A DNA stretch of 64,000 bases from Candidatus Poribacteria bacterium (lineage in GTDB: Bacteria > Poribacteria > WGA-4E > WGA-3G). A model generated the notes under the pieces. The model searched no databases. It saw only the letters and a program-made list of their open reading frames with translations, and was not told the origin of the DNA. The position numbers and the translations under genes were made by a program. Position 1 is the first letter of the stretch; each line of letters begins with the position of its first letter. This document shows, piece by piece, positions 37,585-55,151 of this stretch. The stretch spans positions 4,606,509 through 4,670,508 of the forward strand of contig OY763324.1 of the NCBI GenBank assembly GCA_963667365.1. Direction: 5' to 3'.

Positions 37585-37657
37585 GAGCCGTTAGCTCAGC
37601 AGGTAGAGCATCTGACTTTTAATCAGGTGGTCACAGGTTCGATTCCTGTACGGCTCA
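37585..37657 (+). tRNA. tRNA-Lys (anticodon TTT)
   Basis: Cloverleaf: acceptor gagccgt/acggctc, anticodon loop cTTTTaa, T-arm GGTTCGATTCC. CCA not encoded. Confidence 0.85.
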
Positions 37658-37668
37658 CCTTAATATGC

Positions 37669-37743
37669 GCCCCCGTCGTCTAGCCTGGCCAAGGACACCG
37701 CCCTTTCACGGCGGCGACACGAGTTCAAATCTCGTCGGGGGTA
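37669..37743 (+). tRNA. tRNA-Glu (anticodon TTC)
   Basis: gcccccgTCGTCTAGCCTGGCCAAGGACACCGCCCTTTCACGGCGG...GAGTTCAAATCTCGTcgggggtA, close to E. coli tRNA-Glu. Confidence 0.85.
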
Positions 37744-37852: not shown

Positions 37853-38311
37853 TCAATCCGCAGCCTCTGCCAGTTCCAATAATATTGGGGACTCAACACG
37901 AATAGCGTCTTTGATGCAAACTTCCTCACATAGTAGACAACCTACACACTCTGTCGGTTTCACCAGTTCGCAGATACCAAAGAAACTATCAGCGTGTTCC
38001 TTTGTTGCAGGGTCTGTTATTTCAAGACATTCCCATGGACAGATTTGTACACAGAAATCACATCCAGAGCATAGTTCCTCATAAATTACAGCGATGGGTC
38101 TATGTTTAGGACGTGGGATAAACTTACACACTTTACCGAATTGGTCTCGGATAGCTTCCACAGGACATACCATCCCGCATGCACTACAATCAATACATAC
38201 ACCCGGGTCTATGATGTGTAATTTATTTCGATCACCAGTAATCGCGTCAACCGGACAGTTATCTAAACACTGTACACACCCGATACATTCATCAGTGATG
38301 TAATATGCCAT
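37853..38311 (-). CDS. Iron-sulfur protein with four CxxCxxCxxxCP [4Fe-4S] motifs
   Basis: CIGCVQCLDNCP, CIDCSACGMVCP, CSGCDFCVQICP, CVGCLLCEEVCI. Confidence 0.8.
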   Translation of the reverse strand: MAYYITDECIGCVQCLDNCPVDAITGDRNKLHIIDPGVCIDCSACGMVCPVEAIRDQFGKVCKFIPRPKHRPIAVIYEELCSGCDFCVQICPWECLEITDPATKEHADSFFGICELVKPTECVGCLLCEEVCIKDAIRVESPILLELAEAAD

Positions 38312-38335: not shown

Positions 38336-40744
38336 TTATGATAATCCAAGATGTGTCGCAACCTGTTCGTCCAATTTCGCAGCCCATTCTTCAGGTGAAT
38401 GCACCTTTCCATATCGTGACATCACAATCTTTCCCTGTTTATCAATTAACACGAATGCAGGAACTTTCTGCCATGGATTTATACCAAATAGCTTGAAAAG
38501 TGGACCGTTGTAATCATCACCATCAAGTATATGTTGTCCTTTGCAGTTTTCTTCATGGATACGATCTCTTAATTCATCGTTTGATCCACCATAAATGCAA
38601 ATACTGATAATATCAAATCCTCTTGTATGATATTTATCATATATTGTATAAATATTCGATTGTAATTCACCCGAGGAACAAAAATATAGCAGTACAACAT
38701 TTCCTCGCTGTGTTTCAGGACAAACATGCTCTCCATATACATCAACAGCTGAGAAATCAGGAACCATGCTACCTACCCGTGATGTTTCCGTCCAACTCAC
38801 GATTTGTCCTAATCTATCTTGTCTATTGTCAACAGAAATTATTTTACCTTCTCGGTCAATGAGCCACTGAGAAGGAACAGAGTTTATACCAAAATACTTT
38901 GCAACCTTAGTTTTCCAGACTTCTCCATCAAAGATGTGGGACCACGGAATTTCATGTTCCTCAATATATTCACGTAGTTCTGCTTCGTTTTCATCCAGGC
39001 TTACACCGATGACTTCAAATCCGGTCTTGTGATGGGTCTCGTATACTTTTTTGACATACGGTATTTCTGGTGTGCAGAAACGACACCATTTAGAACAGAA
39101 ATTGAGAAGTACCATTTTCCCTTGATAGTCTGAGAACGATATCGGTTTACCCTCAAGTGTCACAGCGGTAAAGTCAGGTAGTTGTCGTCCAACCCATGCT
39201 GTTTGTGCCCATCTGTATTCAGAGTGGGGTTCCCATGGGTATTTTTGTGCTAATTCGGTTTCCCCCAAAGTTTCATAAATATCACCGAGTCCGCGTAATG
39301 CGTACCATTCGTCAGGTTCGTGTGTCAGCCGTTCCTGAAATACCTGTAACATCTGAACTATCAAAGTTTTACACTTACCTATCAATTCAGAGTTACCATC
39401 AGGATTTTTCATAAGATACCGATAGATGTGGCACGGAGTTCTGCCTAATTCATTATATAGTCTTGTTAACCAGTGATGCAAATCAGATTCGTCTGGATGT
39501 TGTGCCCTTCGATACAATTCTTCAAGTGCTAATAACGTCTTTTCATATAATGGGTCATCACGATTATATAAACTTTTGGCATACAGACTAATTGTGTGAT
39601 AGCAAACTTCTGCATCGTTAGATAACAATTCCATTGCTTGTTCAAGGTATGGAACATCACTGTCTCCTACAATGATTGACAACACCTTCGCTGCTGCACC
39701 GTTGTTCGGCATCTTTTCATACACATCTTCAGTGAATTCTTGGAGTTCCAACAGCATTGCTTGGGGTAACCGCGGAACGTACTCAGCGAGTTCCGATGGT
39801 AATGTTGTACGTCCGTCAATAACTCCATCTTCAAGTTTCATTTTAAAATACTTCAGAAGTTGTTCTTGAATTTTCTGAGTAAGTCTCCATCTGCGGTCTG
39901 AAAGTCCATGGTTTTCAAGAGAATCGAGAAAAGTATCCCAAAAATTAGGGTTTTCGTGTGATAGATCGTCTGTTTTCAATTGGGATTCTGATTCTTGATG
40001 TAATTCTTTTTGAAATGCTGCTTGTTCCTCTATAAGCAAGTCTATACATTTCTTAACCAAGACATTACTTTTCTCTATTTTTCTTTGACACATCTTAAAT
40101 AGAGTTGGATTTTCTGCATCTACCTTGAGTTCCTTAATAATTTCCTTGAGTTTAGCATATACAGCATAAGGCGTTTTCAATCCTTCATAGGCAATCTTAG
40201 CATCCTGATACCGAACGGTTGCCCCCTCTTGTTTTGCCCACGTGTATAGGTTTTCGAGTGAAGTTAGGACTCTTTCTTGCCAGTCTATATCCGATTCATA
40301 AATAACATAACAACATCGGTATCTGTCTATTACAAGTAAATTCATTCCTGGATCTTCAGGTACCAACCGCATACCGTTTTCAATATGCGATAGATATTGA
40401 GAGTCACCTTCCGCACATGCAACAATTGCTAAAATAATTGCCGCAGCACCGTTATTAGGATCTGTTTTTAAAAAACTTTCTGCTAACACTCTTAGTTTTG
40501 GCAACATCTCTTTTTGAAATCGCCAAAAGTAATCGTGCAACCCAGGTGGAAGTGCAGTTTGTCCATCCGTGACACCTACTTCAATCTTTTCTTTAAGGTA
40601 GGTAAGGAGATTTTCCTGCATCTCCTCATCCAACTCTAATTCACCAGTACCTGCAGAAAACCCGAAGTTGCGGAGAGAGTTCAAGAAAGTATACCAGAAA
40701 TCTGTGGAATCAAATTTCTCTATCATATTTGTTTTCCTATTCAC
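38336..40744 (-). CDS. Large cytoplasmic protein, paralog A: duplicated novel N-terminal module plus two thioredoxin-fold (TlpA/redoxin-like) domains
   Basis: Repeated module KFDSTDFWYTFLNSL...LELDEEMQENLL / NPNFWDTFLDSLENHG. Redoxin domain with WCRFC (CxxC). Second redoxin-like domain has a single Cys. Confidence 0.5.
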   Translation of the reverse strand: MNRKTNMIEKFDSTDFWYTFLNSLRNFGFSAGTGELELDEEMQENLLTYLKEKIEVGVTDGQTALPPGLHDYFWRFQKEMLPKLRVLAESFLKTDPNNGAAAIILAIVACAEGDSQYLSHIENGMRLVPEDPGMNLLVIDRYRCCYVIYESDIDWQERVLTSLENLYTWAKQEGATVRYQDAKIAYEGLKTPYAVYAKLKEIIKELKVDAENPTLFKMCQRKIEKSNVLVKKCIDLLIEEQAAFQKELHQESESQLKTDDLSHENPNFWDTFLDSLENHGLSDRRWRLTQKIQEQLLKYFKMKLEDGVIDGRTTLPSELAEYVPRLPQAMLLELQEFTEDVYEKMPNNGAAAKVLSIIVGDSDVPYLEQAMELLSNDAEVCYHTISLYAKSLYNRDDPLYEKTLLALEELYRRAQHPDESDLHHWLTRLYNELGRTPCHIYRYLMKNPDGNSELIGKCKTLIVQMLQVFQERLTHEPDEWYALRGLGDIYETLGETELAQKYPWEPHSEYRWAQTAWVGRQLPDFTAVTLEGKPISFSDYQGKMVLLNFCSKWCRFCTPEIPYVKKVYETHHKTGFEVIGVSLDENEAELREYIEEHEIPWSHIFDGEVWKTKVAKYFGINSVPSQWLIDREGKIISVDNRQDRLGQIVSWTETSRVGSMVPDFSAVDVYGEHVCPETQRGNVVLLYFCSSGELQSNIYTIYDKYHTRGFDIISICIYGGSNDELRDRIHEENCKGQHILDGDDYNGPLFKLFGINPWQKVPAFVLIDKQGKIVMSRYGKVHSPEEWAAKLDEQVATHLGLS

Positions 40745-40769
40745 TGTTTTGTGAAAGTATATGAATTAT

Positions 40770-43181
40770 CTATATGTGCGCTGACACAAGCTCATCTATC
40801 CTCACAGCCCACGCTTCAAGTGAATGTACCTTCTCATAACGTGCATCAATGACCTTACCATCAGCATCAATCAGAATGAAGGCAGGTAGTTTAACTTTTC
40901 GAAATCCTGAACTCGATCCAAATCCGGACTGCTCCACCAGAGAACATTGCAGTCCATCTTCATCAGCATAGACATAGTGTCCTTTATGGTTTTCTTTGCG
41001 TACTACTTTGTGCAAAGCTTCTTCGTCCCTCCAGCCACCAATATTGAAACCAATTACCTCAAATCCATTGTTGTGATGCTTCTTGTATAGTGTGTCAATG
41101 AGTGCGAGTTCAGGTTCACGATTTATGTAACCAAAATGGACTAAAACAACTTTTCCTCGAAATGCAGCTGCAGATATAGAATTGCCATCTATATCAACTG
41201 CAGTAAAATCGGGAATAACGTTGCCAATACGTGTAGTTTCTGTCCACTTCACAAGTTGTCCAAGATGTTCTCCTCTTGTATGAACAGAAAGAATCGTTCC
41301 ATCCCTGTCAATTAACCACTGTGAAGGAACTATGTAAATAGAGAAAAACTGTGCAAGTTCGCTTTTCCATCCTTTTCCATCAAATATGTGGTGCCACGGG
41401 ATCTCATGTTCCTCTATATATTCGCTTAGTTCCTTTTCGTTCTCATCCAAACTCACACCAATTACCTCTAATCCATTGTGGTGATGTTCCTCATATACCT
41501 GTTTGAGATACGGAATTTCTGAATCACAGAAACCACACCACTTCGCACAAAAATTTAGCACCAACATTTTACCACGGTAATCTGAAACAGATATAGGAGT
41601 GCCATCAATAGCAACCGTTGAAAAATTGGGAATTTGCTTTCCAACCCATGCTGCCTGATCCCATCTGTATTCAGGATGGGGTTCCCAAGGGTATTCTTGT
41701 GCTAATACAGTTTCACCTAATACTTCATAGACATCCCCAAGTCCGCGTAATGCATACCAATCGTCTGGTTCGACATTAAGTTGATGCTTAAATGCATGTT
41801 GCATTTGCTCAATCAAGGTTTGACACCTTTCAATCAGTTCTGCATTTGCTTCAGGATTTTTCATCAGATTCCGATATATATGGCATGGTGTTCTACCTAC
41901 GTTCCTATACAGTTTTGACATCCAACTTGTTAATTTCGCTTCATCTTTGTGCTCCGCTCTTTCAAACATTCTCTCAAGAGCAGTAAGTGTTAGTTTGAAC
42001 AATGGATCGTAATGTTTATCATAATGTCTAAGTGCATAAAAGCAGGTTTCAGCATCTTTGGGTGCCAACATCATAGATTGTTCAAGGAATATAAGGTCAC
42101 TATCCGAATTTACATTTCGGATACGTTTACCCTCCCATACTATGCTTGCTAATATTTTCATTGCAGCACCGTTTTTTGGTTGTGTTTCAAGCACCTCTTC
42201 AGCGAATTCACGGAGTTCCAAATGCATCACTTCTGGAAATTCTGAAATATGTTCATGAAGATCCGTTGGTAATATTGTTCTTCCGTCAACCACACCTGCT
42301 GCAATCGTAGCTTCAAGGTAATCAAGAAGTTGCTCTTGGTCCTTCTCAGTAAGTCTTCTTGGAGGTGCATTTTTACGATTTTCAAGCGATTTTAGAAATG
42401 CATCCCATATATCGGTATGATCAGATATTTCATCAACTAAATCTTGTTGGTCCTCCGATTGTTGTCCTGTATACTTCCGAAATGCAGCCTTCTCCATGGG
42501 AACCAAATCTCGACACTTCTTTATTAGGGAATTACATATCTCAATTTCCGTACTACTTTTATCAGAACCTGATGAATTTTGTAGGTCTCTGAGTCTGTCT
42601 TTGAGTTGTTTATAAACTGTATAAGGCGTAACTCTATGCTGCAAATAGAATGACCTAGCCTCCTGATAACGAGCAGTGTCCTCTTGTTGTTTAGCCCATG
42701 TATATAAGTTTTCAAGTGACCTAACAACTTTCTCGTGTCGCTCAAATTCAACGTTAAAATATTGACTTTTTCTGTATTTATCAATCACAACCAAATTCAT
42801 ACACGGATCATTCGGTACCAACGCCATTGACTCATCCACCTGTGGATCATTATTAGCATCCCAGTCTGAAATTTCTACAATTGTGCGAAGTAAGGATGCT
42901 GTGCCGTTTTGTGGATCAGATTGAAGAAAACTATCAGTTAATTCCCGTGTTTTTGGTAACATCTCTTTTGGAATCCGCCAATAGTAATTATGTAGTCCAG
43001 GAGGAAGTGCTGTTTCACCATTCGTAACATCTTCATCAATCTTTTCTTTGAGATAGGCAAGGAATTTATCCTGCATCTCCTCATCCATCTCCAATTCACC
43101 TATTCCATAAGAGAGTCCTTCGTTATATAGAGAGTTAATGAATGTATACCAGAATTCTGTTGAGTCATATTTATCAGCCAT
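40770..43181 (-). CDS. Paralog B of the 38336..40744 protein (803 aa, same architecture, CxxC = WCGFC)
   Basis: Collinear similarity over the full length (MADKYDSTEFWYTFINSL..., ...FCAKWCGFCDSEIPYLKQVYEEH...). Confidence 0.5.
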   Translation of the reverse strand: MADKYDSTEFWYTFINSLYNEGLSYGIGELEMDEEMQDKFLAYLKEKIDEDVTNGETALPPGLHNYYWRIPKEMLPKTRELTDSFLQSDPQNGTASLLRTIVEISDWDANNDPQVDESMALVPNDPCMNLVVIDKYRKSQYFNVEFERHEKVVRSLENLYTWAKQQEDTARYQEARSFYLQHRVTPYTVYKQLKDRLRDLQNSSGSDKSSTEIEICNSLIKKCRDLVPMEKAAFRKYTGQQSEDQQDLVDEISDHTDIWDAFLKSLENRKNAPPRRLTEKDQEQLLDYLEATIAAGVVDGRTILPTDLHEHISEFPEVMHLELREFAEEVLETQPKNGAAMKILASIVWEGKRIRNVNSDSDLIFLEQSMMLAPKDAETCFYALRHYDKHYDPLFKLTLTALERMFERAEHKDEAKLTSWMSKLYRNVGRTPCHIYRNLMKNPEANAELIERCQTLIEQMQHAFKHQLNVEPDDWYALRGLGDVYEVLGETVLAQEYPWEPHPEYRWDQAAWVGKQIPNFSTVAIDGTPISVSDYRGKMLVLNFCAKWCGFCDSEIPYLKQVYEEHHHNGLEVIGVSLDENEKELSEYIEEHEIPWHHIFDGKGWKSELAQFFSIYIVPSQWLIDRDGTILSVHTRGEHLGQLVKWTETTRIGNVIPDFTAVDIDGNSISAAAFRGKVVLVHFGYINREPELALIDTLYKKHHNNGFEVIGFNIGGWRDEEALHKVVRKENHKGHYVYADEDGLQCSLVEQSGFGSSSGFRKVKLPAFILIDADGKVIDARYEKVHSLEAWAVRIDELVSAHI

Positions 43182-43270: not shown

Positions 43271-43576
43271 TTATAGATGTTTTGTAAGTAGTTCTTCGAG
43301 TTTCGCACACCAAGATTCTCGTGAGTGTATCTGTCCGTATCGAGACATTAATACTTTTCCATCTTTACCTATCAGCACAAATGCTGGATGAAAACGACCA
43401 AATCCAATGCCAAATTGCTGTGCCAACGGACCATCCCAGCCATCACCATCAAAGAGGACTTTGTCCTGCATCTCTTCGTCCATCTCCAATTTACCTCTGC
43501 CCGATGCGAGTCCAAAGTTATTAAGTGAGTTTAGAAACTTGTACCAGAAATCTGTAGAATCGTATTTGTCTCTCAT
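43271..43576 (-). pseudogene. Internally deleted third copy of the paralog family (N-terminal 40 aa fused to C-terminal 60 aa)
   Basis: MRDKYDSTDFWYKFLNSLNNFGLASGRGKLEMDEEMQDK matches paralog N-termini. ...FHPAFVLIGKDGKVLMSRYGQIHSRESWCAKLEELLTKHL matches their C-termini. Confidence 0.6.
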
Positions 43577-44342: not shown

Positions 44343-45117
44343 GGTCTTTCTCCTGTGTGATATATTTATCTTGTGTAAGTCGGGAGAATAAGTAGAACCC
44401 TATTTACACAATATTTTTCCTCAAACTACATGACACTTATAATTTTCAAATCATCAAAAGCTTGTCCATCTTGGTCAGTGATACGTAAAATATATGTCGA
44501 TGCACCTTCCTCATTACATATCTTAACGAGGATACTATTTTTATCTGCTTTAAGGAGCACAGGAATAGTGTATTTATCAAGTTTTGCTGCATAGGTTTTG
44601 GTATGTGAGAATACCTCTTTACCATTTAACCATATTTTCCCTTGGTCATCACTATCAAATAAGGGTACGTCGGATGAGTTCAGAATCGTTGTGTTTCATT
44701 TTGCACCTCTTGGAGCAGATGGTTTCATAATTTGTGACGCGTTTTAGAGCAGAATTGGGTGCATATTTTTCAACAATCTTAGGAATTACATCATCTTGCT
44801 ATGAATTTCTTTGAGGAAAAGTATAATAGTTTTATAATATTTAGAGGCGATCTAAAATAAAGGACTCTCTTAGAAGTGTTGCAAACTTAGTATTGGACTG
44901 GATTTATGAGGTATTGATGATATAGGCAAGAATTACTGACTCTAAAGTTTTTGGTGTGACAGTCTAAACTGAGATTCTGATAAATGCAAGGGTATTGTCT
45001 AACGATTGAATTGCACAGTTCTTGGATTTAAAACTTGTGCATGAAGCAGTGTATACTCCAGTAATCGTTAGGCAACACCCTAAGTATGTTGACTGGTTGG
45101 TAGTCAACCAGTGCTAT

Positions 45118-45381
45118 TTACTCAAAATAATCAGCATTAATTTCTATGAAATGTTCCCATTCTTCAGGTACATCTTCTTCCATGAAGATAGCCTCAACGG
45201 GACATTCCGGTTCACACACACCACAATCAATGCATTCTTCTGGATCAATGTAGAGCATTTCTACTTCTTCAAAGTCGTCTGGCGCATCTGTTGGGTGCGG
45301 GTGAATGCAATCTACAGGACACACATCAACACAAGAACTGTCTTTTTCGTCAATGCAAGGTTCGCAAATTACATATGTCAT
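45118..45381 (-). CDS. fdxA: 7Fe-type (FdxA-like, [3Fe-4S][4Fe-4S]) ferredoxin, copy 1
   Basis: MTYVICEPCIDEKDSSCVDVCPVDCIHP...DPEECIDCGVCEPECPVEAIF. Confidence 0.85.
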   Translation of the reverse strand: MTYVICEPCIDEKDSSCVDVCPVDCIHPHPTDAPDDFEEVEMLYIDPEECIDCGVCEPECPVEAIFMEEDVPEEWEHFIEINADYFE

Positions 45382-45421
45382 GGTAATACTCCTTTCATTT
45401 GTTTATTCAATAGTAATAAAT

Positions 45422-45700
45422 TTAAACACTGGGTTGTTCATTGAAAAAATCAGCGTTAATTTGTATGTAATGCTCCCATTCTACGGGAACATCTTCTTCA
45501 AAATAAATAGCCTCAACGGGACATTCGGGTTCACATACGCCACATTCAATACATGTTTCAGGATCAATGAAAAGTTGATTTACACCTTCATAATCATTGG
45601 ATTCATCACTCGGATTTGGTCGTATGGAATCACATGGGCAAATATCAACACAGACACTGTCTTTTACATCAACACAAGGCTCACAAATTACATAAGTCAT
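45422..45700 (-). CDS. fdxA: 7Fe-type ferredoxin, copy 2
   Basis: MTYVICEPCVDVKDSVCVDICPCDSIRP...CIECGVCEPECPVEAIY. Confidence 0.85.
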   Translation of the reverse strand: MTYVICEPCVDVKDSVCVDICPCDSIRPNPSDESNDYEGVNQLFIDPETCIECGVCEPECPVEAIYFEEDVPVEWEHYIQINADFFNEQPSV

Positions 45701-45755
45701 TTCTTTATCTACCTTTTATTATATCCATTTTTTCTAATTTGTCAATTATTGTTTT

Positions 45756-46019
45756 TTATTCGAAATATTCTGCATTTATTTCTATGAAGTGTTCCCATTC
45801 ATCTGGGACATCATCATCCAAGAATATGGCTTCAACGGGACATACCGGAACGCATGCAGCACAGTCTATACATTCTTCAGGGTCAATATAGAGCATTTCC
45901 ACTTCTTCAAATTCATCTGGGTCTACATCCTGCATTGGGTGAATACATTCCACTGGACATATATCCACACAAGCACTGTCTTTTATATCAATACATGGTT
46001 CGCAAATTACATAGGTCAT
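45756..46019 (-). CDS. fdxA: 7Fe-type ferredoxin, copy 3
   Basis: MTYVICEPCIDIKDSACVDICPVECIHP...CIDCAACVPVCPVEAIF. Confidence 0.85.
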   Translation of the reverse strand: MTYVICEPCIDIKDSACVDICPVECIHPMQDVDPDEFEEVEMLYIDPEECIDCAACVPVCPVEAIFLDDDVPDEWEHFIEINAEYFE

Positions 46020-46120
46020 TGTTTTACTCCATAATGCCTGTTTCGTATCATTGGATTATCAGTAGTTATTGACACTGCAGTTGTATATGTAGTGTGACTG
46101 CTAACTATATAAAACCGTCT

Positions 46121-46864
46121 TCAAATAATCGGCAGGGCAGTATTCACTTGAGCAGATTTCCAGTGAATCTTTGGGTTTGGCACGTCATCTGAATAACTAT
46201 ATCCGCCTTGGACATAGCGTATACCTACCATAATCTCTAATCGATATGTTAATTCCTTCGCCTCAGCGATATCTATTTCGTCGTCTTGATTTTTATTTAG
46301 ATCAAAACCCTGATGGATTAATTTCACTTGTAATCCATGTCCAATTAATGAATCTGATAAGAGTTTTGCCAATAATTCAGCATCCGAAAACGATAGTTCG
46401 TCACCATCTTCCTTATTCCGCAAACTAAAACCGTTATGCCTAACTGAAACGTTTAATCCTTCGTTTTTAACCAATGATTCCAGTAATGTCATATCCTCAT
46501 CATGGTAAACAATACCTTCATTTGCAATAATCTTTAATGTATAGCCGCGATCAATAACATTCAAAGGTAGTGTCCGTTCAGCGATTAGTGATTTTAATAT
46601 ATCTCTTATTTCAGGTGTGCGATGTGTTTCTAAAGCGAGACAGTTTATCGCATCCTCCATAATTGGTGCAGTTCTCCCGACAGAAATAGAATGGCTCTTG
46701 CCACATCCGTTCATCCACTGCTTTATTACCTTCTTCATGGCTTCTTGTGTTTCTCTAAAAGCATTGTCACTAACCAATTGTGGACCTCTGTTGGAAGCAT
46801 TTATAGGTAGTTTGTGTTCCTCAATTAAAGTGTCAAGTAATTCTTTTACATCATTCGGTGTCAT
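46121..46864 (-). CDS. Repeat protein (4 x about 55-aa L..LI.E..L...GF.L modules), paralog 1; candidate soluble anti-sigma or partner of the ECF sigma
   Basis: Internal repeats. Paralogous to 46923..47663. Co-oriented immediately downstream of the ECF sigma. Confidence 0.3.
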   Translation of the reverse strand: MTPNDVKELLDTLIEEHKLPINASNRGPQLVSDNAFRETQEAMKKVIKQWMNGCGKSHSISVGRTAPIMEDAINCLALETHRTPEIRDILKSLIAERTLPLNVIDRGYTLKIIANEGIVYHDEDMTLLESLVKNEGLNVSVRHNGFSLRNKEDGDELSFSDAELLAKLLSDSLIGHGLQVKLIHQGFDLNKNQDDEIDIAEAKELTYRLEIMVGIRYVQGGYSYSDDVPNPKIHWKSAQVNTALPII

Positions 46865-46922
46865 GTTTCATCCTCCTTCTATATGAGAAACGGATCTGAT
46901 CTACTGTTCAATAGTCTACAAT

Positions 46923-47663
46923 TCACCTTCTTGGAAACCGCCACAGAGAGATACATATACTGGCACTTTTTAATGCAGTTTCGGATTCTTCATCATCGGA
47001 ATGTAAGTAATTGTACGAATTTAGCACATAGTTGATACCTAAGGTATCATCTATCTTTTTTGCAATCTCTTTTATCTGTGCAAGGTGCATGTCCCCATCC
47101 TGCGTTTTCTCTAAGCTGAAACCACGATGAAACATTTTCGCCTTTATATGCTTTTCTCTTAGTGTTGTTTCAAGACTATCTGTTACCCTTTTTAATTGGG
47201 AAGATGGCACCTCAACTTCTGATGGTTTCTCTAACCTAAAACCACCGTGTAATATTTTTACAGGATAGCGCGTTGAATCATCTTCTGCTAAGGTAATCAA
47301 TCTAAAACCTTGATCGGTGAAACGGATCGCCATATTCTGTTCCGTTATGATAGATTTAATAAGTGCTTCAACATCTATAGATTCCAACAATTCTATTACA
47401 GCCGACTCAACATTTGATTTGGTGTAGAATTCCATAATATCTGATCGAACAGGTGAACGAGAATGTATGTTTCCATCTGTGTTCCATTGATGAATCACAT
47501 CTTTGATGCGTGATTCCATAACGGTATCCAATGATCGAAAATTCTGGTTGGGTGCTATATCAACAACTTCAATCGGAAGTCCCTTCTCTATAATCAAGGT
47601 CTTTAGCAACTCCTTGACATCATTCGGTGTCATCTGTGTTCTCCTTTTAATGTTAGAATGCAT
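46923..47663 (-). CDS. Repeat protein paralog 2
   Basis: MTPNDVKELLKTLIIEKGLPIEV... shared N-terminus and module structure with 46121..46864. Confidence 0.3.
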   Translation of the reverse strand: MHSNIKRRTQMTPNDVKELLKTLIIEKGLPIEVVDIAPNQNFRSLDTVMESRIKDVIHQWNTDGNIHSRSPVRSDIMEFYTKSNVESAVIELLESIDVEALIKSIITEQNMAIRFTDQGFRLITLAEDDSTRYPVKILHGGFRLEKPSEVEVPSSQLKRVTDSLETTLREKHIKAKMFHRGFSLEKTQDGDMHLAQIKEIAKKIDDTLGINYVLNSYNYLHSDDEESETALKSASICISLWRFPRR

Positions 47664-47688
47664 ATCAATTGAAAAGGTTACATAATTA

Positions 47689-48339
47689 TTAGTTCTTGCT
47701 AGAATTTCCCATTTTTTTTGTATTATCTTGTTTCATAAATATGTTGTCGAATTCACCGGGATATTCAGCCTTCATCCATGCAAGAACCTTTTTCTTAGCA
47801 CGATGCAATCGAACTTTAGTCGCTGACAATGATATTTTTAGCGTGTCGGCTATTTTTTCCAACTTCATTTTAGGATTTGCAAGTTTCTGTTCAAATACTT
47901 GCTGTTCAGAAATAGGTAACCGTTGTGCCAGAGCATAAACGATCTCCATCTGTTCTTTCGCTATGATGCGATAAATAGGGGAACGATGTTCAAGATCTAC
48001 CAAATATGCCTCTGGATTTCCTTCGAGTGATCCTATTTCGAGTTTTCTCTGATCTTCTCGGAAGTATGCAGCAATGAGTTGATGCGCTATACTGAAAAGC
48101 CAACTGGAAAAACTCTTGGGATTCCGTAGAGTACTGAGATTTTGATGAACCTTAATAAATGTCTCTTGAACAAGATCTTGTGCGGTTTCCCAATTTCCAA
48201 CACGTCGATAGAAAAAACTGAGGAGTGGACCTTCGTACCGGTGATACAGAATCTCAAATGTCCCATCATCAGTGACATCTATATTTTGATTAATCAATTC
48301 CTCATCACGAAACTCATCCATTAGAAACACCTTTATCAA
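47689..48339 (-). CDS. ECF-type RNA polymerase sigma factor (sigma-70 regions 2 and 4)
   Basis: ...AQDLVQETFIKVHQNL (region 2) and ...LEKIADTLKISLSATKVRLHRAKKKV (region 4 HTH). Confidence 0.8.
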   Translation of the reverse strand: MIKVFLMDEFRDEELINQNIDVTDDGTFEILYHRYEGPLLSFFYRRVGNWETAQDLVQETFIKVHQNLSTLRNPKSFSSWLFSIAHQLIAAYFREDQRKLEIGSLEGNPEAYLVDLEHRSPIYRIIAKEQMEIVYALAQRLPISEQQVFEQKLANPKMKLEKIADTLKISLSATKVRLHRAKKKVLAWMKAEYPGEFDNIFMKQDNTKKMGNSSKN

Positions 48340-48738
48340 TTGATTGGATATAGGTAACTACCTTTTCCTGGAGGTCTTGTGCAACCTCCTGTTTACCGTT
48401 TTCATCCCGTCAACTCCTAATAAGAAAGTCATTCCATACATCCATACCGTGGTCTTTCATCCTATTTTTTCCTATATTATGTTTGCAATTCATCGGTATA
48501 TGTTTAGTATTGTTCATTTGAAATTAGTTTAAAAGGTAAGAATGTGTATCAATGAAAAAGGTTACATAAAAGATATGCTCAGGTTGGGAAGTGTGTCTGA
48601 ATGGAAATTCTTTTTATGCACATTATGTAGTATTTCAAGGACATTAGCAAGTTTTCTGAAGAAAAGCGATTACTATGATAACTAAAAATTAGAAAAGTGT
48701 AATAAGATAATTTCTAAAAATTTGGAGAAATATAATCC

Positions 48739-49296
48739 ATGCTCAAGAATTTAGTAAAGATAACCTGTGTGTTTGCGTTATTGGTATGTTTTGTCGGATG
48801 CGGCGATGTTGATAAGTACCAGGTGTCACCTATAGATTATTCTGCAATTAATAGTGTTCTAAAACGTTGGCGCGAAGGCTATGAAACAGAAGATGTAGAG
48901 ACCTATATGAGTGCATACTGGTCACAAGGTTTTCGGTACGTTTCAGATATGGGGACAGACGGTGATAAAACTGATGATGTAGTGTTTGATGATATACGTA
49001 TCGAACGGGATTCAGCAACCTATGTTTTTAGTAGATATCAGGATATTGAAATTGAACTTTCAATACCACCAGAAATAAAATTATATAACGATGGAACTCA
49101 TGCCGAAGTACGAAATCACTACCGTATCCAAGGTTTTGTGGCAGATGGCGAAGCACTTGAAGGTGGTTACACAGGTTGGTTTGCAGAAGGTGACAACCTG
49201 TTTATCTTTGAAAAAAGAGACGAAATATGGCGTATCGTCGAATGGCATGACGAAGCTTTCAATGATGATGAAATCCGCGCTGCTAATAATCTATAG
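48739..49296 (+). CDS. Lipoprotein, NTF2/SnoaL-like fold (paralog 1)
   Basis: Lipobox LLVCFVGCG. ...VLKRWREGYETEDVETYMSAYWSQGF. Confidence 0.4.
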   Translation: MLKNLVKITCVFALLVCFVGCGDVDKYQVSPIDYSAINSVLKRWREGYETEDVETYMSAYWSQGFRYVSDMGTDGDKTDDVVFDDIRIERDSATYVFSRYQDIEIELSIPPEIKLYNDGTHAEVRNHYRIQGFVADGEALEGGYTGWFAEGDNLFIFEKRDEIWRIVEWHDEAFNDDEIRAANNL

Positions 49297-49406
49297 TTTA
49301 TTATAGTTTGGACAACTTTTTACATCCATGATAAAATGTTCAAACTATATATAACTATTACTGCCTTCCTGGTTTATGAAATAACAGCGTTGGAGGGAAC
49401 ATCAAT

Positions 49407-50021
49407 ATGTTCCAAATATTTATAAAGATATTCGGATTTATTACATTATTGACTTTTTTTGTTGCTTGTAGTGTTGAACTTGATATGGTGGATGAAAAAC
49501 CGGTTGAAGTGCAACAAGTGCCACCTGAGGATATTTTGGGTATCAACGATGTCTTAAAACGGTGGCAAGAAGGATTTGAAATTGGGGATATTGATACCTA
49601 TATTGACACATATTGGTCAGAAGGTTTCCGATACGTTTCAGATATGGGGACAGAAGGGGATAAAACTGATGATCTTGAATTTGATGATATAAGAGAAGAA
49701 CGCGATTCAGCAACTAAAGTGTTTAGCCAATTTCAAGATATAAAGATAGAACTCACTATGCCACCGGTTATCACAATAAATGATGAATATACTCAAGCCG
49801 AAGTGCGAAATCACTACCAAATTCAAGGGTATGTTGCAGATGGCGAAGCTTTTGAAGGTGAATATACAGGATGGTTCGCAGAAGGTGATAACGTGTATAT
49901 GTTTGAAAAACGAGATGGAGAATGGCGTATCACAGAATGGCATGACGAAGCCTTACATGCAGAAGAAATTCAGATTGAAAATAATCAGTTGTTGCCTATA
50001 GTTTGGTCGACTTTAAAGTAG
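49407..50021 (+). CDS. Lipoprotein, NTF2/SnoaL-like fold (paralog 2)
   Basis: Lipobox FFVACS. Strong similarity to 48739..49296 (...YRIQGFVADGEALEGGYTGWFAEGDN... versus ...YQIQGYVADGEAFEGEYTGWFAEGDN). Confidence 0.4.
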   Translation: MFQIFIKIFGFITLLTFFVACSVELDMVDEKPVEVQQVPPEDILGINDVLKRWQEGFEIGDIDTYIDTYWSEGFRYVSDMGTEGDKTDDLEFDDIREERDSATKVFSQFQDIKIELTMPPVITINDEYTQAEVRNHYQIQGYVADGEAFEGEYTGWFAEGDNVYMFEKRDGEWRITEWHDEALHAEEIQIENNQLLPIVWSTLK

Positions 50022-50057
50022 GAAGGGAAAATTGACAACGCATTAATTACGCCAAAT

Positions 50058-50100
50058 GGTATCTCATGATGTCATGAGATACCATGGTTCTTTTCCTCAT
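50058..50100 (+). terminator. Stem-loop (12-15-bp inverted repeat ggtatctcatga..tcatgagatacc) plus T-tract; candidate intrinsic terminator
   Basis: Located 37 bp after the 49407..50021 stop, followed by ggttcttttcctcatttt. Confidence 0.5.
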
Positions 50101-50166
50101 TTTGGTTATGGTTTAAATACCTTGTGTTCAGTAACTACGTTTTGAAATCATTGGGTTTGTCTTGGT

Positions 50167-50283
50167 TGGGAATGGAGATAGTGTCGTGAATGCATGGGTA
50201 GACTCATTTAAGATTTCAGGACCATATCTCAATGTATCCGCAAAAGCAAAGCTTGCAACAACATGGGGACAACTCAAGCAATA
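50167..50283 (+). pseudogene. C-terminal remnant of a third member of the 52466/53905 paralog family
   Basis: Translates ...GNGDSVVNAWVDSFKISGPYLNVSAKAKLATTWGQLKQ*, matching ...AWVEKITISGIPVSPIRKATTIWGQLKQE. No upstream ORF. Confidence 0.5.
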
Positions 50284-50302
50284 GTAATGAATAACTAAGT
50301 AA

Positions 50303-52441
50303 GTGTTTAATACTATTGTTTACAGGAAGGTGCTAAATTGGATGCACAATGCAGTACTTACCTATTCTATTCTGTTTTTGATTCTCTTATCTGTATCCAT
50401 AGGATTCTGTCAAACACAAGAGGTGTTTGGCACAATTCAGGGGCAGGTAACAGACAAACATAACAACCCACTCTCCGATTACGTCATTTCAGTCGTATCA
50501 CAAACAGACAACATAACATACTCCGCTAAAACCAATTCTGGTGGACAGTTTACAATTACGAATCTTCCCGTTGGCACTTGGGTTTTAATAGTTCAGCATT
50601 TCAGTACGTTACTTGCTCAACGTGAAATTACAGTTGAAAAAGAAACCGAAGTTGAAACCAATTTCGTGATTAAAGGGACAGGTGTTATCTCAGGTTTTTT
50701 GCTTGATTCTATTAGCAATCTACCGCTACCAATATCAGGTGAAATACAGGTTGGACTCCTCTCACATGACGTGGAACGGATAGAAAGTATTTTTCGTGGC
50801 AAGGTATCTAACGGGTGTTTTGAAGTTAATAATCTGTTATCGGGACACTATGTAATTATAGATGCTTTTGATGGTTATGTTTTTGCAAAGAATGATTCTC
50901 CAGTCGTGACGGTTTATCCGGAAGGTCATGTCGGTGGTGTGGAGGTATTCTTAAAACGTGGAGCGTATCTTCACGGACGATTTGTTGATGCAGATAATGG
51001 AAATATAATTCCAGGAGTATTCATTAGTGCTGCATCAGAAAAAAGCAATGGTATCTATGCTGATGGTGAGTTAACGTATGAAACAGAGACAGAAACAAAA
51101 GGTGAATTCCAAATCTCAATACCAAACGACTCTGAGACCTATTATGCATTTACACTAATCGCATCACATCCACAGTATCAAACCCAACGTTGGCGGTGGG
51201 AAATGTCACCTGACAAAGATATCTATGCATTAGGTGAATTATCCTTAGAGCCGTTTCTATCCTTGCATGGTAAAGTTGTTTCTTTTAACTCACACCAAAC
51301 AGTTGCTGGATTAAAAGTTCAGTTAAAAATGCACCATAAGTCTACCGACTTTTTCCGTGGTGCAGCACAACTTGAACACACCGTTTACACTGACGTTGAC
51401 GGTGATTTTCTCTTCACTGAACTCCATCCTATTGAATACAGTTTGACAATTTCCCAGAATGATGTTATTATTGGATTCTTAGAGTTAGTAAACCCGCATA
51501 ACAAAAAACTGCTTAAAATCCACTTACAAGAACTGAAAAAGTTATTCGGTACGGTTGTTGATACACAACATCGTCCTATTGCAAATGCTAAAATCTACGC
51601 ATCACGTCAGAACGAAAATCCTCACGGTCACGACGCAATCCTTTCCATGACGCAGACAGATGTCAACGGAACTTTCCAAATGCTGCTATTAGATACGAAG
51701 CCACATCTGCTATCCGTTGAAGTTACCAAAGAAGGTTTTCTTTCAAGGGTATATCCAACAGTTGAGATAGGGAATAATCCACTGGTTGTTCCTCTTCATG
51801 AAGGTATAGTTATCCAAGGGCGCGTTATACATCCAAATGATCACCCATCAGATGGGTATTATGAAGTTAAAATTTTTCCTACAGATACAAGAATGGAAGC
51901 AACACTTAATCCACTGTCATTGATAAGACCCATTCTATCAAGACGTTTTCCTGTGACTGAACAGACTTTTGTTTTGGAAGGACTTTTTGAGGAGAAGTAT
52001 TCTCTGTTTATCACGGGACCTGGAATCGCTGCAACTGGAATTGAAGTCAATGCAACACCAATAAGTGAAGAAGTGCTTATCGTAGCAGACAAACAGGCAG
52101 TGGGGATAAACGGACAAGTGCTTTGGGCAGATACCGGGGAACCAGTACATAACGCTATAGTATCCCGCTCTTGGTATCCGTGGGAATTGAGTCGTTACGA
52201 TATGTCGCTGACCTTAGATCGCTTTGAAACCGATACAGATTCTCAAGGGAATTTTGCATTTACAAATTTGACACAAGGACGTTATATGTTACAGGTTCGT
52301 GTTGTCAGGACAGAATATGTAAAAGAATCTGAAAGCTATCAACGTAATCATATACAGAAAAAAGTTATTATCCCCACTTGTAGCAATACTACATATCGTA
52401 TTTTTTTGGGAAAATCGGACGGTACACCTTTTGTAAGGTAG
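50303..52441 (+). CDS. Secreted protein with multiple carboxypeptidase-regulatory-like (CarboxypepD_reg / transthyretin-like) beta-sandwich repeats
   Basis: Signal peptide. Recurrent G.I.G.V.D....P...v motifs (e.g. VFGTIQGQVTDKHNNPLSDYVISVV). Confidence 0.5.
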   Translation: MFNTIVYRKVLNWMHNAVLTYSILFLILLSVSIGFCQTQEVFGTIQGQVTDKHNNPLSDYVISVVSQTDNITYSAKTNSGGQFTITNLPVGTWVLIVQHFSTLLAQREITVEKETEVETNFVIKGTGVISGFLLDSISNLPLPISGEIQVGLLSHDVERIESIFRGKVSNGCFEVNNLLSGHYVIIDAFDGYVFAKNDSPVVTVYPEGHVGGVEVFLKRGAYLHGRFVDADNGNIIPGVFISAASEKSNGIYADGELTYETETETKGEFQISIPNDSETYYAFTLIASHPQYQTQRWRWEMSPDKDIYALGELSLEPFLSLHGKVVSFNSHQTVAGLKVQLKMHHKSTDFFRGAAQLEHTVYTDVDGDFLFTELHPIEYSLTISQNDVIIGFLELVNPHNKKLLKIHLQELKKLFGTVVDTQHRPIANAKIYASRQNENPHGHDAILSMTQTDVNGTFQMLLLDTKPHLLSVEVTKEGFLSRVYPTVEIGNNPLVVPLHEGIVIQGRVIHPNDHPSDGYYEVKIFPTDTRMEATLNPLSLIRPILSRRFPVTEQTFVLEGLFEEKYSLFITGPGIAATGIEVNATPISEEVLIVADKQAVGINGQVLWADTGEPVHNAIVSRSWYPWELSRYDMSLTLDRFETDTDSQGNFAFTNLTQGRYMLQVRVVRTEYVKESESYQRNHIQKKVIIPTCSNTTYRIFLGKSDGTPFVR

Positions 52442-52465
52442 TAGGCATACTTCCTATTCCGTTGA

Positions 52466-53167
52466 GTGATAAACGACATGAGATATATATCATACGGATT
52501 GAGATTATTTATCACGTTTCTCGTATTCTTCATTTTTCAATCAACGGTGGATGCTGTTACGTGGGTAGATGACTTTGATCAGGAGGTAGAAGATAACTGG
52601 CAACTACAAGGAAACGATTCTGAGTGGCGTATTGAGGAAGGCTTTCTTAGAGCAAAAATTCAGACACAAAAACAGTGGCAAACCATATTTGAACTCTACA
52701 AATTTAATGCATATCCTGGACCTTACAATAATATAAAAATACATATTGAAAACCTCGGTGGAACTGATGTCCGATTCGGTATTGCCATAGGTAAACATTT
52801 CCTGAAGGATGATGGGGATTTGGATGAAGTAGGATATTATCTATTCTTCACAACCGATATGCAAGCATCACGCAATGGCAAAGTCTTTCTCGGTCCCGGA
52901 AAACGTTGGCATACGGATGCCCTCAATGAGATGGAGTTACTTTTTGACAGGGGCAGATTTCAGTTGTATGGTAATGGGGAATCTCGTTTGGATTTTCTTG
53001 ACGCGAACCTAACACAAATTGATATAATCAGTTTTGTCCTCGTCGGCTATGTAACTGATGTTGCAAGCACAGGCAAAGCTTGGGTAGAAAAGATAACTAT
53101 TTCTGGAATCCCGGTTTCACCAATACGTAAAGCTACGACAATCTGGGGACAACTGAAGCAGGAATAG
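52466..53167 (+). CDS. Secreted DUF1080/LamG-like fold protein (paralog 1)
   Basis: Signal peptide. ...WVDDFDQEVEDNWQLQGNDSEWRIEEGFLRA. Confidence 0.35.
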   Translation: MINDMRYISYGLRLFITFLVFFIFQSTVDAVTWVDDFDQEVEDNWQLQGNDSEWRIEEGFLRAKIQTQKQWQTIFELYKFNAYPGPYNNIKIHIENLGGTDVRFGIAIGKHFLKDDGDLDEVGYYLFFTTDMQASRNGKVFLGPGKRWHTDALNEMELLFDRGRFQLYGNGESRLDFLDANLTQIDIISFVLVGYVTDVASTGKAWVEKITISGIPVSPIRKATTIWGQLKQE

Positions 53168-53179
53168 ATAATAGATTCT

Positions 53180-53923
53180 ATGTTACGGAAAAATTTAGAT
53201 CTGATTTTTGATGTATTTTTATTGATAACAGTTGTAGGCGTTGCATTTTGGTGTACTTATGCTAAGGCAAAGTTGCGTCCAAGTGAGAGTGCAGAACCTG
53301 CTGCATCGGGAGCATACTATAGAACTCCCGGCAAAAATAGTAAATGGTTTGGTCCTGAGGTGAACTCATTAACACTTTGTGAGGGTGTGCATAACCCGTA
53401 TAATAATAGAGGGTTTTTTGATATTGTAGAAACTATAGAGAACGCTGTCGTTTCTAAATCTAAAATTGATGGCGCATTACATTGGTATCGACGACAGAAA
53501 TGGGGTTTTGCTAACGACGAAACACCATGGGGCACAAATGTCTCTTACATTACGCTCCGCAATGACCTTGGATGGAGTGAAATTAATCGTGGAACTGGAA
53601 CTACTGGATACCCATGGAGTGGGATAGAACGACATTGGCGAGACGGTCATATTATACGCGCACAAGCCTCCGTGATGGGATGGCGACAATATGCTCGTGG
53701 AAGAGCGCGGTGGATTTGTCCAATGTATTACAAAACTGGAGGTTGGCAAGGAGAAAGTCTTGAGGTACATTGTAAAACACTCAGAACATGGTTTCCACCT
53801 GACTGGAACGTCATGACACAGAAAGATCGCGATTTCGGTACTCCAGTTGAGCGGAGTCCTGGGGTAATCAGTCGCAAAGGGAAACGAACAAATCGGTGGT
53901 ATGATTGTTTACGACTCAATTGA
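53180..53923 (+). CDS. Hypothetical membrane-anchored protein
   Basis: N-terminal TM helix. Trp/Arg-rich. No motif recognised. Confidence 0.3.
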   Translation: MLRKNLDLIFDVFLLITVVGVAFWCTYAKAKLRPSESAEPAASGAYYRTPGKNSKWFGPEVNSLTLCEGVHNPYNNRGFFDIVETIENAVVSKSKIDGALHWYRRQKWGFANDETPWGTNVSYITLRNDLGWSEINRGTGTTGYPWSGIERHWRDGHIIRAQASVMGWRQYARGRARWICPMYYKTGGWQGESLEVHCKTLRTWFPPDWNVMTQKDRDFGTPVERSPGVISRKGKRTNRWYDCLRLN

Positions 53924-54645
53924 AAACCAAATATAATAATAGGTTGATGCGGATTATTTATATATATATTATCCTTATTATTTCTATAACATGTTTTATC
54001 CTCCCTACATTTTCGGAAACTTGGTATGATGATTTTGATTCCGAAAATCCAGATGCTTGGCACATCGTAGGAAACGATGATGTCTGGAAAGTTGCCGACG
54101 GATTTTTACGCGTTGGTGTAAATCGGGATTGGGAAGTTAATTACGATCTATATCAACTCATTGCATTTCCTACACCATACCGTGACTTTAGCATTAGAAT
54201 CAACAACATCGGTGTTGATAAAATACGTCTCGGTTTCTGTGTTGGACGACATTTTCCTGATACATCTGGAGAAGACCCATTTTTCTACGTATTTTTTACA
54301 GATGAAATAAGAGCGCGAAGGTTTGATGGCAAGGGGAGTAGTCATCCATTTCATAGTAGGTTGTCACGTGAACCGCGTTTGCGTTGGAACACAGACGAAT
54401 TGACAGTGATGGAGATACATTTTAACTCTGGACTCTTTCTCGTATTTGCTGATGGTGAATTCCGTGCAAAATTCCAAGATCGAAACTTCAATCGTGTGGA
54501 AATTCTTGGATTCGTAGTAGAAGGAATCAATATAGCAAACCAGTGGATTGGTGAAGGATGGGTTGATTCCTTCACGATATCTGGTTTAAATGTGTCTTCA
54601 AATGAAAAAGCAACCTCAACTTGGGCGGATATAAAGGACAGATAA
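53905..54645 (+). CDS. Secreted DUF1080/LamG-like fold protein (paralog 2)
   Basis: ...TWYDDFDSENPDAWHIVGNDDVWKVADGFLRVG. Collinear with 52466..53167. Confidence 0.35.
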   Translation: MFTTQLKTKYNNRLMRIIYIYIILIISITCFILPTFSETWYDDFDSENPDAWHIVGNDDVWKVADGFLRVGVNRDWEVNYDLYQLIAFPTPYRDFSIRINNIGVDKIRLGFCVGRHFPDTSGEDPFFYVFFTDEIRARRFDGKGSSHPFHSRLSREPRLRWNTDELTVMEIHFNSGLFLVFADGEFRAKFQDRNFNRVEILGFVVEGINIANQWIGEGWVDSFTISGLNVSSNEKATSTWADIKDR

Positions 54646-55151
54646 TGAATAGTCCACAAAAACCTCATGCTGGGAGTATTCATTCCAGATTTGATCGTAT
54701 CACACAAACGCAATTATTGAAGGAATTGCTTTTTGTATGTATATGGATTGGATTTGGTACTTTAACGCTTTGGGGAGGAGACATATTTGGATTTCTTTCT
54801 TTTTCCCACAATACCCCCACAAACACTACTCTACAAGTTGAATTCCCTCATGTTTATGATATATGGAAACGAGGAGAGGGAGTTTTCGTGGATACGCGAC
54901 CTGCAACCTACTTTAAGAGGGGACATATTCCGGGTGCAGTAAATGTTCCTATCAATCGTGTTACACAACATTTAAATGTCCTACCAACAAATAAAGAAAC
55001 CCCATTGATAACGTATTGCGGAAGTATTGCATGCCCAAACTCCTATCAATTGATGCATGTGCTGTTAGGAGAAGGTTACCTAAACGTCCGTTATTTTCCG
55101 CGTGGATTGAAAGGTTGGCAGACGTTAGGATATCCATTGGAAACAGAATGA
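54621..55151 (+). CDS. Rhodanese-domain sulfurtransferase (membrane-anchored)
   Basis: ...ATYFKRGHIPGAVNVPI... active-site loop YCGSIACPNS. Confidence 0.7.
   Translation: MGGYKGQIMNSPQKPHAGSIHSRFDRITQTQLLKELLFVCIWIGFGTLTLWGGDIFGFLSFSHNTPTNTTLQVEFPHVYDIWKRGEGVFVDTRPATYFKRGHIPGAVNVPINRVTQHLNVLPTNKETPLITYCGSIACPNSYQLMHVLLGEGYLNVRYFPRGLKGWQTLGYPLETE

Follow-up and report, generated by a model that had tools for sequence, protein, structure and literature searches.

What controls a sigma factor of the extracytoplasmic function (ECF) type that has no recognizable anti-sigma factor beside it? Few bacterial signaling devices are as abundant as ECF sigma factors. The question of how those without a recognizable anti-sigma factor are controlled is raised here by a gene run at positions 45118-48339, minus strand, of a 64-kb stretch of a Candidatus Poribacteria genome, referred to below as the window. 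The run encodes an ECF sigma factor, two paralogous repeat proteins (A and B) and three tandem ferredoxins (Fd1, Fd2 and Fd3). One promoter-like motif stands before the sigma gene and again before the gene for paralog A, which makes it probable that sigma factor, repeat proteins and ferredoxins belong to a single small regulon. The locus is a clean phylum-wide case with one sigma factor, two precisely defined predicted promoters and a partner family that is invariant and whose structure is predicted with confidence. The question is directly testable in a heterologous host, even though the sponge-associated Poribacteria are uncultured.

Gene organization of the locus

A preliminary description of this DNA had reported a run of an ECF sigma gene, two paralogs and three ferredoxin genes of 87, 92 and 87 amino acids (aa). 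The run is real, and all six open reading frames (ORFs) were found on the minus strand where that description had placed them. The features of the run are as follows.

48537..48566, minus strand: P1, ECF-type promoter-like motif TGTAACCTTT-N12-CATTCTTA (exact pattern match)
47689..48321, minus strand: ECF sigma factor, 210 aa (Sigma70_r2 and TIGR02937 above cut-off)
47653..47682, minus strand: P2, second motif copy TGTAACCTTT-N12-CATTCTAA (exact match, 27-nt pattern)
46923..47633, minus strand: paralog A, 236 aa, soluble alpha-beta-beta repeat protein (homology, synteny, AlphaFold)
46121..46864, minus strand: paralog B, 247 aa, predicted five alpha-beta-beta units and an insert (AlphaFold, homology)
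45756..46019, minus strand: Fd1, 7Fe-type ferredoxin, 87 aa (cysteine pattern, homology)
45718..45745, minus strand: sigma-70-type promoter TTGACA-16-TATAAT in the Fd1-Fd2 spacer (12/12 consensus positions)
45422..45700, minus strand: Fd2, 7Fe-type ferredoxin, 92 aa (cysteine pattern, homology)
45118..45381, minus strand: Fd3, 7Fe-type ferredoxin, 87 aa (cysteine pattern, homology)
45092..45112, minus strand: 8-bp hairpin directly after Fd3 (fold z = -2.1; minus strand without a T-run)

Two of the start sites differ from those proposed before. The sigma gene had been started at TTG 48339, and ATG 48321 is the most likely start, giving a protein of 210 aa. The paralogs had been assigned 246 and 247 aa; the second length is that of B, but A is 236 aa. 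Its start is placed at 47633 (N-terminus MTPNDVKELL) because ATG 47663, which gives the 246-aa version, falls within the -10 box of the conserved promoter motif, and because 236 aa fits the 235-236 aa of most homologs. The B-Fd1, Fd1-Fd2 and Fd2-Fd3 spacers are 101, 55 and 40 nt long, and each of the three ferredoxin genes has, as had been noted, its own ribosome-binding site, which is of the GGAG type. The hairpin after Fd3 is possibly the end of the transcription unit. A search of the cluster for Rfam RNA families found none.

Conservation in Poribacteria

Related loci were collected by a scan of one genome per species, which yielded 53 loci with ~12 kb per genome. The source records of 52 are titled Candidatus or uncultured Poribacteria and that of L054 is titled "uncultured bacterium". 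An A-type gene comes next after the sigma gene in 52/52 loci that include the sigma gene, with a median gap of ~83 nt. This settles the earlier concern that the repeat proteins might never accompany ECF sigma factors elsewhere. Downstream of A come anything from 0 to at least 6 B-type paralogs, then 1-3 ferredoxin genes, and the number of A/B copies per locus varies from 1 to 8. The recurrence in 53 species-level poribacterial genomes means that the arrangement is not due to chance.

The loci fall into two subclades. In the subclade of the window the sigma factors are 75-88% identical to the window's, and an orthologous Fd1-Fd2-Fd3 triplet is found in most loci; three of its loci (L050, L052 and L053) have A as their only repeat-protein gene and carry two ferredoxin copies. 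In the other subclade sigma identity to the window's is ~63-66%, and the gene order is A, B and then 1-2 ferredoxins. Because three orthologous copies are common to the window's subclade, the ferredoxin triplication is old and not a recent amplification. All homologs of A and B with a named source organism are from Candidatus Poribacteria, and an exhaustive profile search of 1.84 billion representative proteins returned only 18 representatives of the A/B family. Searches of the literature for Poribacteria with ferredoxin or sigma factor gave no account of this cluster.

A 35-codon N-terminal ferredoxin fragment is fused directly before a B-type gene in L026, L028 and L040 (~5897-5989), inside expanded arrays of 6-8 A/B paralogs, and L026 and L028 have an additional unit of P2 and an A-type gene. 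The fusions and the extra P2-A units are what tandem duplications of entire P2-A-B-Fd modules have left behind.

A shared ECF-type promoter motif

Alignment of the regions upstream of the sigma genes revealed the conserved motif ATGTAACCTTTT-N10-CATTCTTA. In its longer form, TGTAACCTTT-N12-CATTCTTA, it spans 30 nt. The pattern TGTAACCTTT-N12-CATTC is matched perfectly at just two places in the window, P1 and P2, both on the minus strand. P1 lies ~220 nt upstream of the sigma start, and P2 begins 6 nt past the stop codon of the sigma gene, 49 nt ahead of where A starts. In related loci, 49 instances of the motif are placed like P1, before the sigma gene or before a redoxin gene ahead of it. ECF promoters of the sigma-E type have AAC in the -35 element followed after ~19 nt by TC in the -10 element, and the geometry of the motif fits this layout.

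The motif core TGTAACC[TC]TT was counted in ~0.65 Mb of poribacterial DNA. There were 105 occurrences across the loci: 46 lie 48-54 nt upstream of A, 28 precede the sigma gene and 26 precede a ~430-aa redoxin gene that itself precedes the sigma gene. Only 5 are located elsewhere, 3 of them as a variant before a second, unrelated ECF sigma gene. The spacing of the motif is invariant across instances. In a metagenome scan the motif stood in promoter position only at the sigma and A genes, on contigs with close homologs of the window genes; the same scan, made for further regulon members, gave only chance matches outside Poribacteria. From these observations we infer that the sigma factor would autoregulate its synthesis through P1 and drive A, B and Fd1 through P2. 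The sigma-A spacer contains no terminator and is filled by P2. Since Fd1 lacks its own promoter and the spacer that separates it from B is unstructured (fold z = -0.2), the gene is probably read through from P2.

A Poribacteria-specific sigma factor

The sigma protein scores 61.5 bits with Pfam Sigma70_r2 (cut-off 24) and 72.3 bits with NCBIfam TIGR02937 sigma70-ECF (cut-off 42.9). Region 4 scores 20.9 bits in the window protein, under the 25.7 cut-off, and PF08281 is on record for most orthologs. The protein thus has the composition of an ECF (group IV) sigma-70 factor, with the sigma-2 and sigma-4 regions only and a score over threshold. It falls far under the cut-off of every named ECF subgroup (SigZ, SigW, Bacteroides type and others), the best being TIGR02985 with 82.9 against 126.4 bits. 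Orthologs in Poribacteria are at least 60% identical, and the next matches are generic ECF sigma factors at no more than 36%. By sequence, the protein belongs to a Poribacteria-specific ECF group. It contains no cysteine, and only ~30 residues follow region 4.

Pfam and NCBIfam scans found no zf-HC2, RskA or other anti-sigma domain in A, in B or in the divergent operon upstream of the sigma gene. The preliminary description had left room for a cognate anti-sigma factor encoded upstream of the run, and the divergent operon contains no classical one. The operon was also considered as the site of a hidden anti-sigma factor, and this was rejected since none of its products has a cytoplasmic domain followed by a transmembrane helix. 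No kinase, two-component system, regulatory C-terminal domain or classical anti-sigma gene was found anywhere in the conserved neighborhood.

A second ECF sigma factor, ~28% identical, is encoded downstream of Fd3 in L023 (7927), L030 (8754) and L034 (7939). Its gene is preceded by the same -35 part, TTGTAACCTTTTT, and a different -10 region, and it may be a paralogous sigma factor with overlapping -35 specificity.

Repeat proteins A and B

A and B are 31% identical (BLASTP E = 4e-26) and neither belongs to a Pfam or NCBIfam family. Both are soluble and acidic, with maximum KD19 hydropathy values of 1.39 (A) and 0.92 (B), and no transmembrane helix, zinc motif or anti-sigma domain was detected in them. 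In particular, they lack the N-terminal helical domain and HxxxCxxC motif of Class I (ZAS) anti-sigma domains. The AlphaFold model of B is predicted with pLDDT 94.5 and pTM 0.89. The model of A (pLDDT 76, pTM 0.78) has the same layout minus one helix. The four ~55-aa modules proposed for these proteins did not hold up: a hhalign self-match (85% probability) and the AlphaFold secondary structure point to five alpha-beta-beta units of ~35-41 aa. Each predicted unit consists of a helix and a beta-hairpin and ends in G-[FYP]-x-[LY], which in B falls at G27, G107, G145, G186 and G221. The distances between successive units of B are thus 80, 38, 41 and 35 aa, and ~45 aa are inserted after the first unit. 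A and B have the same highly conserved N-terminus, and A has a distinct conserved tail, SLWRFPRR. The invariant residues of the family include the N-terminal M-x-P and two histidines (H143 and H184 of B) that lie in equivalent H-x-G-F turns of units 3 and 4.

A Foldseek comparison of the B model with the PDB found no match (best E = 0.14, TM no higher than 0.24), nor did a search of PDB sequences with the A/B profile. The alpha-beta-beta repeat architecture predicted by the models is previously undescribed. GyrI-like/SHS2 proteins (the BmrR C-terminal domain, Lin2189 and p22HBP) are the top, non-significant Foldseek matches for A, and one is matched by B. They resemble the models of A and B in having repeated strand-helix-strand-strand units and differ in that TM is only 0.15-0.18, E is 0.014-0.4 and there is no sequence similarity; the resemblance of the models is only a lead. 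Other candidate relationships were set aside. Weak Pfam matches to TraI_middle, Glrx-like, Mnd1, FeoC and DUF4224 are below threshold, short and inconsistent; that to TraI_middle covers 34 aa at 24 bits in 22/131 family members. Neither Pfam nor NCBIfam backs the JGI label "antitoxin of RelBE/YafQ-DinJ" that one homolog of A carries. The H-x-G-F turns recall the two H-x-T/S-x motifs of the 2H-phosphoesterases, but the motif differs and TM is 0.10.

Three ferredoxins with different promoters

Fd1, Fd2 and Fd3 all have the pattern C-x7-C-x3-CP ... C-x2-C-x2-C-x3-CP, which is intact in 112/116 related ferredoxin copies. Their closest single-domain relatives of solved structure are the 7Fe ferredoxins 2v2k, 1bc6, 1h98 and Azotobacter FdI, from Mycobacterium smegmatis, Bacillus schlegelii, Thermus and Azotobacter, with E = 3.5e-25 for 2v2k. 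The cysteine pattern and this homology identify them as 7Fe, FdxA-type ferredoxins that are predicted to hold one [3Fe-4S] and one [4Fe-4S] cluster. The cut-offs of the NCBIfam FdxA equivalogs are not reached (93-96 against 125 bits for FdxA_Actino and 69-80 against 135 bits for FdxA_Protbact).

The three proteins had been called near-identical, which overstates their pairwise identity: 78% for Fd1/Fd3, 70% for Fd2/Fd3 and 59% for Fd1/Fd2. Fd2 has CPCDS where the others have CPVDC. Conservation is highest for Fd3, with 92-100% identity within the subclade, and this gene has the look of the housekeeping copy. Nor are the three equivalent copies under a stress sigma factor: a conserved consensus sigma-70 promoter precedes Fd2 and Fd3. 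It lies between Fd1 and Fd2, and has at most 1 mismatch in 22/23 triple-ferredoxin loci. Fd2 and Fd3 would thus also be expressed independently of the ECF sigma factor, and the tandem copies are wired differently: the promoters predict one stress-induced and two constitutive ferredoxins.

In the clade with 1-2 ferredoxins the corresponding spacers have another character. Strong conserved hairpins without a U-tract occupy the B-Fd and Fd-Fd spacers (L009:6762-6806 and 7106-7148, z ~-3.5), where the window subclade has promoters or short unstructured spacers. These hairpins may be partial terminators or mRNA-stabilizing elements.

Redoxins near the locus

The redox setting suggested for the locus was borne out by TlpA-like redoxins that lie under the sigma factor's promoter motif or downstream, and by a polyferredoxin nearby. 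About half of the genomes have, under this motif and on the same strand, a gene for a cytoplasmic TPR-like and TlpA-like CxxC redoxin of ~430 aa. The redoxin that precedes the sigma factor in L009 has the active-site sequence WAVWCGPC and no signal peptide. Homologs of ~800 aa directly flank the sigma-A-B-Fd cluster in many relatives, and the window has two.

38336..43181, minus strand: two paralogous cytoplasmic ~800-aa double-redoxin proteins (library scans, pairwise comparison)

These proteins are 803 and 802 aa long and 51% identical to each other. In each, a duplicated helical region at the N-terminus is joined by two TlpA/ResA-like thioredoxin-fold domains, the first of which carries its CxxC in WCGFC (803 aa) or WCRFC (802 aa). 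They score 110 and 107 bits with AhpC-TSA and 99 and 86 bits with Redoxin. The thioredoxin fold and CxxC identify both as TlpA/ResA-like thiol-disulfide oxidoreductases; the model of the ResA subfamily itself gives 113 bits, under the 170 cut-off. The 101-aa ORF at 43271-43576 (minus strand) is an internally deleted relic of a third such double redoxin; over its first 41 aa it shares 73% identity with residues 1-41, and its last 60 aa correspond to residues 737-803. A 152-aa polyferredoxin gene with four Fer4 motifs (37853-38311, minus strand) closes the minus-strand run downstream of the redoxin genes, and two tRNA genes (37585-37743, plus strand) adjoin it.

Output or regulator

Synteny and the shared promoter motif strongly support a functional link between the sigma factor, A/B and the ferredoxins, and three kinds of neighbor strongly support a redox theme. 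The most likely explanation, to which we give somewhat more than even weight, is that A, B and Fd1 are effectors: the locus would be the regulon of a Poribacteria-only ECF sigma factor that drives them as its output. The sigma factor would transcribe its own gene from P1, together with the upstream CxxC redoxin gene in about half of the genomes, and from P2, directly past its own stop codon, it would transcribe A, the B-type paralog(s) and the first ferredoxin. A and B would act jointly, the paralogs assembling into a hetero-oligomer and the 7Fe ferredoxin serving as their redox partner; the response concerned would be to thiol, iron-sulfur or oxidative stress. Fd2 and Fd3 would also be constitutive from the consensus sigma-70 promoter and supply a housekeeping ferredoxin pool. 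Transcription from P2 by the sigma factor would make A/B its main local output, and the variable copy number (1 to 8) and the promoter of their own are as expected of effectors. Several points weigh against this explanation. A positively autoregulated ECF sigma factor normally needs a brake, and A could possibly be that regulator. A/B and ferredoxin copy numbers show no strict correlation across loci, no cysteine is conserved in A or B, and the invariant H143 and H184 are only suggestive of a role. Use of the promoters by the sigma factor is predicted from their position and conservation. The redox stimulus, the cooperation of A/B with ferredoxin and the way in which the sigma factor is held inactive are likewise things that we infer.

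In the opposite assignment A would serve, by itself or jointly with B, as a soluble anti-sigma factor of a new kind or as a co-regulator, binding the sigma factor and releasing it on a redox signal. The ferredoxin would possibly relay the signal, the B-types would be decoys or partners, and P2 would provide negative feedback through excess anti-sigma factor. A is the only non-ferredoxin gene that adjoins the sigma gene in every genome, as a single A-type copy in first position in 52/52 loci, and it is kept even where there is no B-type paralog (L050, L052 and L053). It would be co-transcribed with the sigma gene from P1, since no terminator separates them. The sigma factor itself contains no cysteine, the conserved neighborhood offers no other type of regulator, and the tail SLWRFPRR sets A apart. 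The authors of an ECF reclassification consider that undetected soluble anti-sigma variants probably exist (PMC7826278), which counts in the same direction. However, A is unlike the known helical anti-sigma domains and has neither HxxxCxxC nor a transmembrane helix, and a full sigma-type promoter separates it from the sigma gene where translational coupling would be usual. The A/B family reaches 7-8 copies in some genomes, a B-type count of 0 to at least 6 looks more like output than regulator, and the conserved N-terminus common to A and B argues for a shared non-regulatory activity. A regulatory A is therefore possible but doubtful. That A and B are structurally unprecedented soluble ECF regulators, with A inactivating the sigma factor and the paralogs and 7Fe ferredoxin forming the redox switch that releases it, seems unlikely; if true, a ferredoxin-coupled anti-sigma mechanism would be confined to one candidate phylum.

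The brake could also be the TPR-like and TlpA-like CxxC redoxin, either the ~430-aa protein before the sigma factor or the ~800-aa double protein downstream, acting as thiol sensor and anti-sigma factor as RsrA does for SigR, with A, B and the ferredoxins as pure targets. The redoxin gene stands directly under P1 and ahead of the sigma gene in 26 motif instances (L009 for example), ~800-aa homologs follow the ferredoxins in many loci, with two paralogs and a relic downstream in the window, and the predicted helical N-terminal domain could bind the sigma factor. We nevertheless judge this quite improbable: the redoxin does not adjoin the sigma gene in the window or in many other loci (for example L001, L004-L007, L013, L048 and L049), the thiol-stress regulons of ECF sigma factors typically include TlpA-like redoxins among their targets too, and Pfam and NCBIfam show no anti-sigma domain signature in the redoxin. 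The remaining explanation denies any control by the sigma factor. Only the gene order would be conserved, A-B-Fd would be housekeeping genes read by another sigma factor, and the motif would be the site of an unrelated repressor or activator. Fd2 and Fd3 are clearly under a housekeeping promoter, and the -10 part, CATTCTTA, is without the CGT that many ECF promoters have. The motif, however, shows -35/-10 geometry with invariant spacing, stands at promoter distance from both genes, precedes the sigma factor's own gene as ECF autoregulation predicts and is nearly absent elsewhere, all of which makes coincidental gene order a very remote prospect.

Flanking DNA

Downstream of Fd3 an ORF-poor stretch (44343-45117) includes a gene remnant at 44438-44659 (minus strand), the last ~73 codons of a gene that is intact in related loci, just upstream of a 243-aa gene. 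The distance from Fd3 to the remnant is ~0.5 kb in the window versus ~3-4 kb in related loci, and in several relatives this stretch holds the second ECF sigma gene. Because its stretch is shorter than those of its relatives, the window appears to have lost DNA downstream of Fd3.

Upstream, the products of the divergent operon (48739-55648, plus strand) are secreted or lie in the membrane. They comprise a pair of SnoaL-like lipoproteins, a CarboxypepD_reg repeat protein of 712 aa, three unknown signal-peptide proteins, one rhodanese-like protein and one MauE/DoxX membrane protein. In many related loci, too, the CarboxypepD_reg gene diverges from the sigma gene.

A candidate selenocysteine ferredoxin in related species

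Four related species have one ferredoxin copy with an in-frame TGA codon; none of these copies is in the window.

L010:1296-1559, L014:7184-7447, L018:6821-7084, L025:7178-7441: TGA ferredoxin copies (in-frame TGA)

The TGA replaces Cys53 (ECID*AVCEPACP), the second cysteine of C-x2-C-x2-C-x3-CP and by homology a [4Fe-4S] ligand, and the frame is intact to the normal stop codon. A SECIS-like hairpin, AACCGG-CGTGT-CCGGTT, with a perfect 6-bp stem begins 10 nt past the TGA codon, which is 13 nt past the first base of the codon. This places 16 nt between codon and loop, and the second position of the loop is a G. A perfect stem is present in 4/4 TGA copies versus 7/100 Cys copies. All four species thus combine an in-frame UGA at a Cys position with a SECIS-like hairpin, the hallmarks of a bacterial selenoprotein, and the TGA ferredoxin is a candidate selenocysteine-containing 7Fe ferredoxin with a selenocysteine-ligated iron-sulfur cluster. 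A search of the loci for Sec-type redoxins (W-U-x-x-C) found none. Poribacteria have been reported to encode Sec-containing hydrogenases (PMC13582414). In the passages of a 2026 selenoproteome review that a term search gave, the only ferredoxin-named families are ferredoxin-thioredoxin reductase and HgcB (PMC13188914), and a selenocysteine-ligated ferredoxin family does not occur in those passages.

Comparison with known systems

The three ferredoxins resemble FdxA and the Thermus and Bacillus schlegelii 7Fe ferredoxins (2v2k, 1h98 and 1bc6) in the full cysteine pattern and in ~50% identity over the whole chain. They differ from them in a 10-residue insertion after CPVDCI, in the occurrence of up to three tandem copies with different promoters and in the TGA at a ligand cysteine in some relatives.

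The sigma factor invites comparison with the autoregulated thiol- and oxidative-stress ECF systems SigR-RsrA (Streptomyces), SigH-RshA (Mycobacterium) and EcfO-Reo (Bacteroides). Like these, it is a two-domain ECF with a predicted promoter of its own type before its own gene and with thioredoxin-fold and redox proteins alongside. Unlike these, it has no ZAS or other recognizable anti-sigma gene; the gene after it encodes an alpha/beta repeat protein and has its own copy of the promoter. With no more than 36% identity to any other ECF, it stands in a separate Poribacteria-only group.

The ECF41 systems are similar in another respect: there a conserved neighbor carries a sigma-dependent promoter, as is predicted here for A, and there is no separate anti-sigma factor, just as none is recognizable here. 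The ECF41 sigma factors have a long regulatory C-terminal extension, whereas the window sigma factor ends ~30 residues past region 4, and the neighboring gene belongs to a family different from A/B. In ECF41 systems the conserved neighboring gene is the main target of the sigma factor rather than its regulator.

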